64,000 nt of DNA, from assembly GCF_029227855.1 (NCBI RefSeq), contig NZ_CP074356.1; one strand, 5' to 3'. The stretch comes from Escherichia coli. GTDB lineage: Bacteria; Pseudomonadota; Gammaproteobacteria; Enterobacterales; Enterobacteriaceae. Positions within the stretch are counted from its first letter, which is position 1. The number at the start of each line of letters is the position of its first letter. Shown one piece after another: positions 15,001 to 21,000 of the stretch. The position numbers are program-made.

Positions 15001-18000
15001 CAGATTCTTTTAGATGCCAGAATGCAGCACGCAAAAAATTTGATACGCGTAGAAGGTTCAGTCAATAAAATTGCCGAACAATGTGGTTATGCGAGTACAT
15101 CTTATTTTATTTATGCGTTCCGCAAACATTTTGGCAACAGTCCAAAGAGAGTTTCTAAGGAGTACCGTTGTCAAAGGCACACGGGTATGAATACGGGCAA
15201 CACGATGAATGCTTTAGCTATTTGATTATTTGCTAACGAGTAGTCAACCATACACGCTACGTAAGAATTAAATGGGGCAGCTATTCCCTGCCCCGCGTTG
15301 TTTTTAGGCGATATATTTATTGAAATAAATAAGTGACATTCATCACATATTTATGCATTTGCATAACCTGTTGCATGATTATTTATGATCTCAATTCGGA
15401 ATTTTGTCAGTAAAACACAATAATTTATTAAATATCAATAGATTAGTTGTTTATCTGCGAGAAATTACTTAGTAGAACAGAAAGTAATGTCAACAGTTTA
15501 TGGACTGTTATTTCTCTTTTTTTAGCTAAATCTGCTATCTCTTTATGTGACTAACTTCACTTACATCCACTTATTTCTCTTCGTAAAATTACTTTGGAAT
15601 TAAGTACAATAAGAAGAGGAACATTTATGAAGTCTGCATTAAAGAAAAGTGTCGTAAGTACCTCGATATCTTTGATACTGGCATCTGGTATGGCTGCATT
15701 TGCTGCTCATGCGGCAGATGATGTAAAGCTGAAAGCAACCAAAACAAACGTCGCTTTCTCAGACTTTACGCCGACTGAATACAGTACCAAAGGAAAGCCA
15801 AATATTATCGTACTGACCATGGATGATCTTGGTTATGGACAACTTCCTTTTGATAAGGGATCTTTTGACCCAAAAACAATGGAAAATCGTGAAGTTGTCG
15901 ATACCTACAAAATAGGGATAGATAAAGCCATTGAAGCTGCGCAAAAATCAACGCCGACGCTCCTTTCATTAATGGATGAAGGCGTACGTTTTACTAACGG
16001 CTATGTGGCGCACGGTGTTTCCGGCCCCTCCCGCGCCGCAATAATGACCGGTCGAGCGCCCGCCCGCTTTGGTGTCTATTCCAATACCGATGCTCAGGAT
16101 GGTATTCCGCTAACAGAAACTTTCTTGCCTGAATTATTCCAGAATCATGGTTATTACACTGCAGCAGTAGGTAAATGGCACTTGTCAAAAATCAGTAATG
16201 TGCCAGTACCGGAAGATAAACAAACGCGTGACTATCATGACAACTTCACCACATTTTCTGCGGAAGAATGGCAACCTCAAAACCGTGGCTTTGATTACTT
16301 TATGGGATTCCACGCTGCAGGAACGGCATATTACAACTCCCCTTCACTGTTCAAAAACCGTGAACGCGTCCCCGCAAAAGGTTATATCAGCGATCAGTTA
16401 ACCGATGAGGCAATTGGCGTTGTTGATCGTGCCAAAACACTTGACCAGCCTTTTATGCTTTACCTGGCTTATAATGCTCCGCACCTGCCAAATGATAATC
16501 CTGCACCGGAGCAATATCAGAAGCAATTTAATACTGGTAGTCAAACAGCAGATAACTACTACGCTTCCGTTTATTCTGTTGATCAGGGTGTAAAACGCAT
16601 TCTCGAACAACTGAAGAAAAACGGACAGTATGACAATACTATTATTCTCTTTACCTCCGATAATGGTGCGGTTATCGATGGTCCTCTGCCGCTGAACGGG
16701 GCGCAAAAAGGCTATAAGAGTCAGACCTATCCTGGCGGTACTCACACCCCAATGTTTATGTGGTGGAAAGGAAAACTTCAACCCGGTAATTATGACAAGC
16801 TGATTTCCGCAATGGATTTCTACCCGACAGCTCTTGATGCAGCCGATATCAGCATTCCAAAAGACCTTAAGCTGGATGGCGTTTCCTTGCTGCCGTGGTT
16901 GCAAGATAAGAAACAAGGCGAGCCACATAAAAATCTGACCTGGATAACATCTTATTCTCACTGGTTTGATGAGGAAAATATTCCATTCTGGGATAATTAC
17001 CACAAATTTGTCCGTCATCAGTCAGACGATTACCCGCATAACCCCAACACCGAGGACTTAAGCCAATTCTCTTATACGGTGAGAAATAACGATTATTCGC
17101 TAGTCTATACAGTAGAAAACAATCAGTTAGGTCTATACAAACTGACGGATCTACAGCAAAAAGATAACCTTGCCGCCGCCAATCCGCAGGTCGTTAAAGA
17201 GATGCAAGGCGTGGTAAGAGAGTTTATCGACAGCAGCCAACCACCGCTTAGCGAGGTAAATCAGGAGAAGTTTAACAATATCAAGAAAGCACTAAGCGAA
17301 GCGAAATAACTAAACCTTCATGCGGCGGATTTTTCCGCCGCCTTATTGAGCGAGATAGCGATGCACGTTACAGCCAAGCCCTCCAGTTTTCAATGTAATC
17401 TCAAATGTGATTACTGTTTTTACCTTGAAAAAGAGTCGCAGTTTACTCATGAAAAATGGATGGATGACAGCACTCTGAAAGAGTTCATCAAACAATATAT
17501 CGCAGCGTCTGGCAATCAGGTCTATTTTACCTGGCAAGGCGGTGAACCCACTCTGGCTGGCCTGGATTTTTTCCGTAAAGTTATTCACTATCAACAACGC
17601 TATGCAGGCCAAAAACGTATTTTTAATGCATTACAAACGAATGGCATTTTATTGAATAATGAATGGTGTGCCTTTCTCAAAGAACATGAGTTTCTGGTTG
17701 GTATCTCGATCGATGGACCCCAGGAGCTACATGACCGTTACAGACGCAGTAATTCTGGTAACGGTACTTTTGCAAAAGTGATAGCAGCCATCGAGCGTCT
17801 GAAATCATATCAAGTAGAGTTTAATACGTTAACCGTCATTAATAACGTCAATGTCCATTACCCTCTTGAGGTTTATCATTTTTTAAAATCTATCGGCAGT
17901 AAACATATGCAATTTATCGAATTGCTAGAAACCGGGACGCCGAATATTGATTTCAGTGGTCATAGTGAGAACACATTCCGTATCATTGATTTTTCTGTGC

Positions 18001-21000
18001 CTCCTACGGCTTATGGCAAGTTTATGTCGACCATTTTTATGCAATGGGTTAAAAACGATGTGGGTGAAATATTCATCCGTCAGTTTGAAAGCTTTGTCAG
18101 CCGTTTTTTGGGGAATGGGCATACCAGTTGTATTTTCCAGGAGTCCTGCAAGGATAATCTGGTTGTTGAAAGTAATGGAGACATTTACGAATGCGACCAT
18201 TTTGTCTATCCACAGTACAAAATTGGAAACATTAATAAATCTGAACTTAAAACGATGAACAGTGTACAACTGACAGCGCAAAAAAAACGGATTTCTGCGA
18301 AATGTCAGCAATGTGCATATAAACCTATCTGCAATGGCGGTTGCCCTAAGCATCGTATTACTAAAGTAAACAATGAGACTGTTTCTTATTTTTGCGAAGG
18401 TTATAAAATCCTTTTTTCAACCATGGTACCTTATATGAACGCCATGGTGGAGTTAGCTAAGAACAGAGTACCGCTTTACCACATCATGGATGTTGCAAGA
18501 CAAATGGAGAATAATTAATAACGCTCCCTCTTTGCTCCAGTCTTAGCTTCGTTCTTATGGCCTTAACAAGACACCCGACATAAATTACTGTTGGGTGTTT
18601 CGTCATCATCATCTTCCCTTGCGAAAATTCTGGCTTACGTGGCATGCGTCAGGGCATTAGCAATACCCTTGATTATCAATAGCATAACCGTAACCATTGA
18701 AAATAAAAAATTTCTTTATATTTCATAATATTAAATGACACTTAAATAAATTTCATCAGTAAATCATTGCCATAGATAATCATTGGATGGCACAATCAAT
18801 TTTCGCTAATGATAACCATTCCCATTACGTTTCGTATGTTGATAGCAAAGTATCTCTGTCTGCTGAAGCCCTTTTGGCTGCGTAAGAATAATAAAACTTC
18901 AGTGCTGTTAATCATTATTATCCTCGCCATGATCCTTGGCGTAGTTAAAATTCAGGTCTGGTTAAACGACTGGAATAATGATTTTTTCAATGCGCTAAGC
19001 CAGAAAGAAACCGATAAGCTTTGGCAGCTTGTCCTTTGGTTCCCTGCCCTGCTGGGGATCTTTGTATTAATATCCGTAAACAAAACATGGCTAATTAAAC
19101 TACTGACTATTCGCTGGCGCGAATGGTTAACAGATTACTACCTTAATCGCTGGTTTGCAGATAAAAACTACTACTTCACGCAGATCTACGGTAAGCATAA
19201 AAATACAGATAACCCTGACCAACGTATCGCTGAAGACATTCTCTTACTGATCAGCAAAACGCTCAGTCTTTCATTTGGCTTCATCCAGTCACTTAGCATG
19301 TTGATCACCTTTACCGTTATTCTTTGGCAAAGCGCGGGTACGCTCTCATTCACTGTTGGTGGAACAGAATGGAATATCCAGGGGTATATGGTCTATACCG
19401 TCGTGCTCATTGTGATCGGTGGAACTTTATTTACTCATAAGGTTGGTAAACGTATTCGTCCGCTTAATGTGGAAAAACAACGTAGCGAAGCGACATTTCG
19501 AACTAATCTTGTGCAGCATAATAAGCAGGCTGAACTGATTGCGCTAAGCAATGCTGAGTCTCTACAACGCCAGGAGTTGAGCGACAATTTTCATACCATT
19601 AAAGATAACTGGCATCGTTTAATGAATCGTCAGCGGTGGCTTGATTACTGGCAGAATATTTATTCGCGCTCGCTTAGCGTTCTTCCCTACTTTCTGTTAT
19701 TGCCGCAGTTTATTAGCGGACAGATCAATCTGGGCGGACTGATGAAATCGCGCCAGGCATTTATGCTGGTATCGAACAATTTAAGCTGGTTTATTTATAA
19801 ATATGACGAACTTGCTGAACTGGCTGCGGTTATCGATCGTTTGTATGAGTTCCATCAACTCACCGAACAGCGCCCTACGAATAAGCCTAAAAATTGCCAA
19901 CATGCGGTACAAGTGGCTGACGCGAGTATTCGTACTCCTGATAATAAGATCATATTAGAGAACCTGAACTTTCATGTTTCGCCAGGCAAATGGCTATTAC
20001 TGAAAGGTTACTCTGGTGCGGGAAAAACCACACTGCTTAAAACATTATCCCACTGCTGGCCGTGGTTCAAAGGTGATATTTCTTCTCCTGCTGACAGTTG
20101 GTATGTGTCACAAACACCGTTAATCAAAACCGGCTTACTGAAAGAGATTATTTGTAAAGCACTTCCCCTGCCCGTAGACGATAAATCGTTGAGCGAAATA
20201 CTGCATCAGGTTGGTCTGGGGAAATTGGCTGCGCGTATTCATGACCACGATCGCTGGGGAGATATTCTTTCCAGCGGCGAAAAACAACGTATCGCCCTGG
20301 CACGATTAATTTTACGACGTCCGAAATGGATATTTCTTGACGAAACTACCTCTCATCTTGAGGAACAAGAGGCTATCCGCTTACTGCGTTTAGTGCGTGA
20401 AAAACTACCCACAAGCGGCGTCATTATGGTTACACATCAACCCGGTGTCTGGAACCTGGCTGATGATATTTGTGACATTAGCGCGGTTTTATAAAAACAA
20501 TAAAAGCCCTGCTGTACGGAGATAAAAATAAATGAAGCGAGTTCTTATTCCTGGCGTCATTTTATGTGGCGCTGATGTGGCGCAGGCCGTCGATGACAAA
20601 AACATGTACATGCATGTTTTTGAAGAGATGACGGTCTATGCTCCTGTCCCTGTACCCGTAAACGGCAACACGCATTACACCAGTGAAAGCATCGAGCGTT
20701 TACCGACCGGGAATGGCAATATCAGCGATCTGCTGAGAACCAACCCTGCGGTACGCATGGATTCAACGCAAAGTACCTCATTGAACCAGGGAGATATTCG
20801 CCCTGAGAAAATCTCTATTCACGGTGCGTCGCCCTACCAGAATGCCTATTTGATTGACGGTATTAGTGCAACTAATAACCTGAACCCAGCGAATGAGTCC
20901 GATGCCAGTAGTGCAACCAATATTAGCGGGATGTCACAGGGGTATTATCTTGATGTCAGCTTACTGGACAATGTGACGCTTTATGACAGTTTTGTGCCGG

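Follow-up and report, generated by a model that had tools for sequence, protein, structure and literature searches.

The ydeN-ydeM pair of Escherichia coli as a probable self-contained Ser-type sulfatase and maturase cassette with a conserved intercistronic RNA stem-loop

In a window of 64,000 nucleotides (the whole stretch of DNA that was analysed, from contig NZ_CP074356.1 of the Escherichia coli assembly GCF_029227855.1), the adjacent genes ydeN and ydeM probably form a functional and self-contained two-gene cassette, in which a Ser-type sulfatase would be matured by the radical S-adenosylmethionine (SAM) enzyme encoded next to it, then exported, with its expression tuned by an RNA hairpin that lies between the two genes. 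The two genes are located as follows.

15627-17309, plus strand: ydeN, precursor of a Ser-type S1 formylglycine-dependent sulfatase, 560 amino acids (Pfam PF00884, RefSeq).
17361-18518, plus strand: ydeM, anaerobic sulfatase-maturating enzyme (anSME; radical SAM/SPASM), 385 amino acids (TIGR03942, RefSeq).

In the scheme that we propose, a promoter upstream of ydeN, held at a low level in laboratory culture through AraC with arabinose and through GadX, would drive the transcription of both genes together, and the stem-loop after ydeN could work at the RNA level as a leaky intrinsic terminator, a 3'-end stabiliser or both, leaving more sulfatase message than maturase message. YdeN would be made as a Sec-exported precursor and, before export, cytoplasmic YdeM would oxidise Ser132 to C-alpha-formylglycine, in an oxygen-sensitive step that uses three [4Fe-4S] clusters. 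The mature periplasmic YdeN would then hydrolyse a sulfate ester, most likely that of a small sulfated sugar, for which a galactose-4-sulfate-like geometry is the best guess. Three parts of this scheme are inferred: that modification precedes export, that the hairpin attenuates expression, and what class of substrate is cleaved.

The pair itself is a long-annotated core E. coli operon. The locus was found in 5,322 of the 5,426 complete E. coli genomes (~98%), and since the annotation carries the names ydeN and ydeM in about 5,300 of them, it must be counted as already known. Between 15400 and 18800 the window is 100% identical to strain JNEC-KY178, in which RefSeq annotates ydeN and ydeM at exactly these coordinates, and ~98% identical to K-12, for which RefSeq likewise lists the two genes (MG1655 b1498 and b1497). 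What is new here is modest: the strict cassette and invariant Ser across two phyla, the purifying selection, the covariation of the hairpin and the S1_19-like relatives of the sulfatase. These results sharpen the obvious experiments and leave the picture of what the locus is unchanged.

YdeN matches the Pfam Sulfatase family (PF00884) over the entire model (positions 1-301 of 301; E 1.3e-70, 238.6 bits against a cutoff of 25). The serine that the original prediction had placed at the formylglycine position, in S-G-P-S-R, was found there as S132 inside a full sulfatase signature (SGPSRAAIMTGR in its extended form), which fits (C/S)-X-P-X-R followed by xxx(L/M)TG(R) with Ser first (S132-G-P-S-R136-AAIMTGR).

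16020-16034, plus strand: formylglycine motif S132-G-P-S-R136, codons TCC GGC CCC TCC CGC (from the translation).
AHGVSGPSRAAIMTGR: YdeN-derived peptide spanning residue 132.
15627-15713, plus strand: predicted Sec-type signal peptide, residues 1-29, MKSALKK...AAHA with the cut before the next A (by inspection of the translation).

In an alignment of 39 sequences made up of orthologues and sister families, residues D66, D67, R136, H185, H286, D345 and K364 of YdeN are invariant, and K183 and N346 are conserved in at least 90% of the sequences. These residues correspond to the metal-binding and catalytic positions of S1 sulfatases, namely two N-terminal Asp, an Asp-Asn pair, an Arg, a Lys/His pair, a His and a Lys. 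The AlphaFold (AF2) model of YdeN computed from the same alignment has a mean predicted local distance difference test (pLDDT) score of 90.7, with low values in the leader, where a helix is predicted at residues 6-24, and its top fold matches in the PDB are all S1 sulfatases. Neither a twin-arginine motif nor a lipobox Cys was seen when the translated leader was read by eye, and N-terminal hydrophobic leaders with an A-x-A end are found in most of the aligned YdeN orthologues. On these predictions, YdeN is an S1 sulfatase whose catalytic residues are intact.

The second gene product, YdeM, scores 505 bits on the NCBIfam equivalog TIGR03942 'anaerobic sulfatase maturase', against a cutoff of 349.45 and over model positions 1-362 of 363, and it carries the CX3CX2C motif of a radical-SAM sulfatase maturase at C12, C16 and C19, in agreement with what had been claimed for it.

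17394-17417, plus strand: radical-SAM CX3CX2C motif, C12-NLK-C16-DY-C19, invariant in 14 of 14 orthologues.
18129-18395, plus strand: SPASM region with the auxiliary-cluster cysteines C257, C263, C278 and C328 and C315, C318, C324 and C345, plus D279 (from the alignment).

YdeM aligns over its full length with anSMEcpe of Clostridium perfringens (PDB 4K36, E 5e-63; structures 4K36-4K39). When set against the published list of auxiliary-cluster ligands of that enzyme (PMC5682303), C257/C263/C278/C328 and C315/C318/C324/C345 of YdeM match C255/C261/C276/C330 and C317/C320/C326/C348, respectively, so that the CX3CX2C motif, the eight auxiliary cysteines and the Asp by the third cysteine of auxiliary cluster I (Aux I) are common to both proteins. 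All 11 Fe-S cysteines, together with the C-D dipeptide in which this Asp adjoins the third Aux I cysteine, are invariant in the 14 orthologues, and YdeM is accordingly predicted with all the cluster ligands of an anSME intact. The annotated start, the ATG at 17361, is kept across genera. An upstream TTG at 17346 was considered as an alternative start, but it is kept in Escherichia and Leminorella only, and not in Citrobacter, Cedecea or Mixta, and the annotated ATG was retained for this reason.

The association between the two genes extends well outside E. coli. In a scan of one genome per species, YdeN orthologues were recovered at 54-96% identity from E. albertii, Leminorella, Citrobacter, Cedecea, Mixta, Grimontia, Psychromonas, three Anaerobiospirillum and three Fusobacterium; exact-protein look-ups contributed the loci of Yersinia pestis, Salmonella enterica and Aeromonas veronii. 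A maturase gene lies immediately downstream of the YdeN orthologue, on the same strand, in every one of the non-E. coli two-gene loci (17 of 17, in 13 other genera), and the cassette ranges over Enterobacterales, Vibrionaceae, Aeromonas, Psychromonas, Anaerobiospirillum and Fusobacterium, which represent two phyla. The clustering of all flanking open reading frames (ORFs) from 13 loci gave no further neighbour common between genera; these loci share no conserved small ORF or other partner, and no glycoside hydrolase or transporter gene was found beside the cassette among the loci compared. The individual neighbours, judged from their sequences alone, appear to be unrelated genes with housekeeping or regulatory roles.

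The Ser of SGPSR is invariant in the 14 YdeN orthologues that were aligned, and in an exhaustive representative search of the sister families at 35-45% identity, 25 of the 29 sequences inspected are Cys-type. Since the nearest sister families are mostly Cys-type, the Ser state appears as a derived trait of the YdeN clade, where it is always accompanied by its own radical-SAM maturase, and a Ser with an adjacent maturase is the pattern expected if Ser-type maturation depends on that enzyme. The family scores, the conserved residues and the synteny agree on the pairing of a Ser-type S1 sulfatase with a dedicated anSME, as the original prediction had proposed.

It could be argued that the real substrate of YdeM is not YdeN but, for example, AslA, another sulfatase or a peptide, as in related SPASM maturases, given that YdeM also scores on maturase models for RiPPs (peptides made on the ribosome and modified after translation), such as DynA with 219 bits. 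Those scores are far under their cutoffs, however, whereas the TIGR03942 cutoff is passed by 155 bits; in addition, the maturase adjoins a YdeN orthologue in every locus examined, and the lack of a small ORF or partner common to the loci also argues against a separate client. We therefore consider it highly unlikely that YdeM is devoted to something other than YdeN. A further point in favour of this alternative comes from a second YdeN-like sulfatase carried by some E. coli, which is 565 amino acids long, ~77% identical to YdeN and Ser-type (VSGPSRAAILTAR). This accessory paralogue lies outside the window (L022:2615-5544 and L023:1497-4426), belongs to a cluster of 303 member sequences, and is preceded by a porin gene and followed by short ORFs and an IS110 transposase. 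Nothing homologous to YdeM was detected close by; the paralogue would thus rely on a maturase encoded elsewhere, and YdeM may serve more than one client.

Both genes seem to be under strong purifying selection. The ratio of nonsynonymous to synonymous substitution rates (dN/dS; Nei-Gojobori, against K-12 and E. albertii) is 0.013-0.014 for ydeN and 0.037 for ydeM, and such values of 0.01-0.04 indicate that neither gene is decaying. The contrary explanation is that the pair is a cryptic or decaying relic in which YdeM and/or YdeN is inactive, and that this accounts for the failure of E. coli with Ser-type sulfatases. Such a view could draw on the field's working rule that E. coli converts only Cys, not Ser, to formylglycine, on the very low coverage of ydeN-ydeM transcripts in lysogeny broth (LB), on the AT-rich region (37-46% GC) and on the occasional IS2 insertion, which splits ydeM in the canine isolate NZ_CP098854.1 (H14). 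It is difficult to reconcile with the dN/dS values, with the intact catalytic residues and 11 Fe-S cysteines, with the retention of the locus in ~98% of complete E. coli genomes and with the maintenance of the same cassette across two phyla, and we regard it as unlikely. Two other irregularities were seen in the E. coli genomes: a few of them (H18, H19) have an M16 metallopeptidase gene instead of the usual gene downstream of ydeM, and in one (H20) merely ~200 nucleotides (nt) of the region are left.

The work behind the rule that only Cys is converted concerns standard, mostly aerobic recombinant expression, and since such cultures are aerobic and induced, a repressed and oxygen-labile YdeM is not expected to act in them. 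The reported failure of E. coli with Ser-type sulfatases could therefore reflect silence or oxygen sensitivity of YdeM, and not a loss of function. The rule is also not absolute, since an active Ser-type sulfatase has been made in E. coli without a co-expressed maturase, in a study that named AslB and YdeM as the putative anSMEs of E. coli and suspected a third, unidentified system (PMC8379841). The earlier statement that E. coli K-12 is unable to mature Ser-type sulfatases is thus echoed in the literature for ordinary aerobic recombinant expression, but it does not hold without exception. The literature has been aware of this question for years, and at the latest since the 2007 study of Benjdia et al. 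(FEBS Lett 581:1009), in which the maturase genes aslB and ydeM were reportedly both deleted in E. coli. It has some practical weight, given that E. coli is the default host for sulfatase production and that the field routinely mutates Ser to Cys, though E. coli carries an intact and constrained Ser-type pair of its own. Learning when the pair is active would settle a small and long-standing inconsistency and could give a native route for maturing Ser-type sulfatases.

The spacer between ydeN and ydeM (17310-17360) is 51 nt long. The original prediction had correctly placed ydeM directly downstream of ydeN, although the gap of 52 bp that it gave is the stop-to-start offset and not the length of the spacer. 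The perfect GC hairpin that it had described between the genes was recovered as well.

17322-17341, plus strand: intercistronic RNA stem-loop GCGGCGGA-UUUU-UCCGCCGC, beginning 12 nt after the ydeN stop, with the tail CUUAUUGA.
17348-17355, plus strand: weak Shine-Dalgarno-like sequence GAGCGAGA, 5 nt before the ydeM ATG, read from the sequence and not in the hairpin.

The two arms, at 17322-17329 (GCGGCGGA) and 17334-17341 (TCCGCCGC), are 8 nt long and 100% complementary around a 4-nt loop, with G-C at 7 of the 8 pairs and a centroid energy of -17 kcal/mol. The variants found within E. coli (five sequences, four distinct alleles) fall in the loop and flanks and leave the stem untouched. From the end of the stem to the ydeM ATG there are 19 nt, in which the weak GAGA Shine-Dalgarno stands outside the stem, and a GAGA or GAGG occupies the equivalent place before ydeM in other Enterobacterales.

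The stop-to-start spacers of nine genera (E. coli, E. albertii, Leminorella, Citrobacter, Cedecea, Mixta, Yersinia, Salmonella and Aeromonas) were aligned and folded with MAFFT/RNAalifold, unsupervised, and one 9-bp helix was recovered at the same place. Standard pairs make up 91.4% of the cells and changes on both sides are seen at 8 of the 9 pairs; no more than 0-1 of 500 column shuffles were as good, and the pairing fell to 38-71% when the 3' partner was slid by 1-3 columns. The 81 helix cells include 68 Watson-Crick pairs, six G-U and one A-C, and this imbalance between G-U and A-C points to a pairing in the plus-strand RNA, rather than in the DNA or on the opposite strand. The covariation indicates that the stem-loop is selected as an RNA structure and conserved well beyond E. 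coli.

Taken alone, the folding energy of the E. coli hairpin would not lead to this conclusion (z = -1.45, with 23 of 200 shuffles folding as well), and the flanks, ATGCGGCG...CGCCTTAT, resemble parts of the repetitive extragenic palindromic (REP) consensus. One could thus imagine that the hairpin arose by chance, belongs to the REP-type repeats or serves as a DNA operator, and is not an RNA element. A REP element needs many dispersed copies, however, and the 51-nt spacer is single-copy (median 1 and maximum 2 places per genome, at 95% identity or more, in 5,336 E. coli genomes), for which reason the hairpin is not a REP. The compensatory changes at 8 of 9 pairs and the G-U cells tell against chance and against an operator, and a scan of 15200-18850 with Rfam returned two sub-threshold chance matches only and no family for the hairpin. 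This explanation is largely refuted and in our opinion hardly tenable.

As a selected RNA structure, the stem-loop may act as a leaky intrinsic terminator and/or a 3'-end stabiliser that keeps the sulfatase message above the maturase message, the sulfatase being the stoichiometric product and the maturase a catalyst. The tails that follow the stem are U-rich, with 3-6 T in 8 nt, and reach 5-6 of 8 in Leminorella, Citrobacter, Cedecea, Mixta and Salmonella, where they have the U-tract of a terminator (at least 5 of 8), as has the tail of Grimontia; the T-tracts of Leminorella, Grimontia and Salmonella are canonical. A stable hairpin also follows the sulfatase gene in Grimontia and Psychromonas, and the spacers of Anaerobiospirillum are longer (250-520 nt) and hold several strong terminator-like hairpins. 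The good T-tracts and the long Anaerobiospirillum spacers could also be taken as signs of a full terminator that leaves ydeN monocistronic, with ydeM expressed from a promoter of its own. In E. coli, however, the hairpin stands just 19 nt from the ydeM ATG, which leaves no room for a promoter downstream of the hairpin, and no promoter-like site was found on the plus strand in 16500-17360. The E. coli U-tract is weak, and ydeM and ydeN have been described as co-transcribed and jointly de-repressed in a delta-araC strain (PMC10878103). Complete termination after ydeN is thus improbable, and we retain the leaky terminator and/or stabiliser as the more plausible role.

With regard to the substrate, the best solved sequence relatives of YdeN are S1_19 enzymes, namely ZgCgsA (9HH2/9HH3), Ps iota-CgsB (6BIA/6B0J) and PsS1_19B (6PSM), with E-values of 1e-52 to 1e-42; they are followed by an S1_16 enzyme and GALNS-like enzymes, and BT4656 (5G2V) comes at 3e-30. 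The fold search (Foldseek) gave a similar order, the same S1_19 structures leading (E ~1e-33, template modelling (TM) scores of 0.80-0.82 normalised on the target), then S1_16, with BT4656 at rank 29. We have accordingly revised the nearest-relative assignment of YdeN to S1_19-like, a placement made by best matches at 26-28% identity and not by SulfAtlas models. In SulfAtlas, the regioselectivity of S1_19 is D-galactose-4-sulfate (PMC9825549). The substrate of the pair had been called an open question, which agrees with a 2024 paper stating that the substrate of YdeN is not reported and speculating on mucin use from its 33% similarity to the N-acetylglucosamine (GlcNAc)-6-sulfatase BT4656 (PMC10878103). 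A substrate resembling galactose-4-sulfate or N-acetylgalactosamine (GalNAc)-4-sulfate is a better first guess than GlcNAc-6-sulfate. This guess is weak because of the low identity, a clade-specific insertion in YdeN (see below) and the lack of glycoside hydrolase or transporter neighbours.

The S1_19 carrageenan D-galactose-4-sulfatases (endo or exo; 9HH2, 6B0J, 6PSM) have the same catalytic residues as YdeN. The characterised S1_19 enzymes are Cys-type, marine and encoded in carrageenan loci, whereas YdeN is a Ser-type enzyme of gut and enteric bacteria, with no glycoside hydrolase gene beside it; YdeN also carries ~27 additional residues (82-108), and its C-terminal domain is longer.

All of the above could be gathered into a more ambitious reading, in which the covarying stem-loop would be a dedicated device of the cassette that sets or gates the maturase:sulfatase ratio, and not a generic terminator. 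Together with the repression by AraC/GadX and the oxygen lability of the maturase, it would explain the apparent inability of laboratory E. coli to mature Ser-type sulfatases, and YdeN would be a galactose-4-sulfate-type glycan sulfatase with which enteric bacteria scavenge sulfated sugars from host or dietary glycans in the anaerobic gut. We hold this reading as a rather doubtful proposal. Several points also weigh against the scheme proposed at the outset, besides the ordinary folding energy and the Cys-only rule already mentioned. The E. coli tail, UUAUUGAG (or CUUAUUGA if the stem ends at 17341), has 4 U in 8 either way, fewer than the 5 of 8 expected of a terminator, and the E. coli hairpin was not called by the terminator scan. 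No RNA 3' end after ydeN appears in the text-form supplementary files of Adams 2021, which says little because coverage there is only ~30 reads per 800 nt. The cassettes of Fusobacterium are without the hairpin, so that it is not essential to the pair. Finally, YdeN and the S1_19 enzymes are only about 26-28% identical over the structural alignment, and the insertion specific to the YdeN clade (~82-108) stands between the metal-binding DD motif and the next helix, beside the active-site entrance; the galactose-4-sulfate specificity may therefore not transfer to YdeN.

The closest functional parallel to the pair is found in Klebsiella pneumoniae, where AtsA/AtsB, according to accounts attributed to Szameit in 1999 and Grove in 2008, are a Ser-type arylsulfatase and a radical-SAM maturase reportedly needed to convert Ser to formylglycine. 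There, a periplasmic Ser-type S1 sulfatase with a Sec leader and a cytoplasmic three-cluster radical-SAM enzyme are encoded in one operon, a pairing like that of YdeN and YdeM, with the gene order reversed (atsB before atsA). AtsA and YdeN sit in different parts of the S1 tree, YdeN being nearest to S1_19, and the conserved intercistronic hairpin is a feature particular to ydeN-ydeM. In Bacteroides thetaiotaomicron, a single enzyme, anSMEbt, acts in trans for 28 sulfatases, in contrast to YdeM, which is tied to the one sulfatase encoded beside it. E. coli has a second sulfatase/anSME pair, aslA/aslB, which follows the same two-component logic at a locus outside the window; its genes are divergently arranged, unlike ydeN-ydeM.

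The signals that would initiate transcription and translation of ydeN were placed as follows.

15560-15589, plus strand: promoter-like site CTTACA-18-TAAAAT upstream of ydeN (consensus scan only).
15613-15621, plus strand: ydeN Shine-Dalgarno sequence GAAGAGGAA, ~7 nt ahead of the ATG and unchanged among E. coli, K-12 and E. albertii.

The number of promoter-like sites in the region is not above chance, and the block at 15560-15589 is conserved between E. coli and E. albertii. Upstream of it, at 15273-15295, a G+C-rich hairpin with T-runs on both strands, resembling a bidirectional terminator, follows closely on ydeO, where the 400-nt AT-rich spacer between ydeO and ydeN begins. According to published work, ydeM is transcribed together with ydeN, itself a direct AraC target; ydeMN is high in a delta-araC strain and de-repressed in a mouse-gut-adapted delta-araC strain (PMC10878103). 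AraC is found on the region upstream of ydeN only when arabinose is present (PMC3738151), and the binding of GadX reduces ydeN transcription (PMC4918353). In anaerobic culture with the sulfonated azo dye FD&C Red 40, ydeN was the sole induced gene, and its deletion left dye reduction unaffected (PMC10653809). Knowing when the pair is active would thus also give a function to two conserved y-genes that answer gut-relevant signals, as in the gut-adapted delta-araC strain and with the azo dye under anaerobiosis. A search for the AraC half-site TAGCN7TCCATA with up to 3 mismatches gave 430 matches where 435 were expected, and no AraC site could be placed from the sequence.

At the other end, the operon seems to be terminated by Rho action, since a Rho-dependent region has been published at the ydeM 3' end and neither an intrinsic terminator nor an inverted repeat was found between ydeM and yddA.

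About 18470-18485, plus strand: approximate Rho-dependent termination region at the ydeM 3' end (MG1655 1579674, minus strand, mapped via NC_000913.3).

This region was defined by DirectRNA-seq in the presence and absence of bicyclomycin, lies 41 nt ahead of the ydeM stop codon and has a Rho score of 3.37 (p 5.4e-5) at MG1655 1579674 (Adams et al. 2021 eLife, supplementary file 2). On the opposite strand, at 18484-18606, RefSeq has a 40-amino-acid ORF called 'protein YneP' in K-12 and 'hypothetical protein' in this strain; it is antisense to ydeM, overlapping its final 35 nt, and the longer ORF call (18484-18645) is of 53 amino acids.

The block running from safA/ydeO through ydeN-ydeM to the start of yddA (13500-19500 in the window) has a G+C content of 37-46%, and the upstream edge of the profiled region ~50-53%. 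The low G+C of this block fits a horizontally acquired island, and silencing by nucleoid proteins might also be supposed. A ydeN-ydeM pair with 99-100% protein identity to E. coli was also met on contig JARKOR010000108.1, assigned to a 'Candidatus Nanosynbacter sp.' metagenome-assembled genome (MAG), where it is almost certainly an E. coli contamination of the MAG bin.

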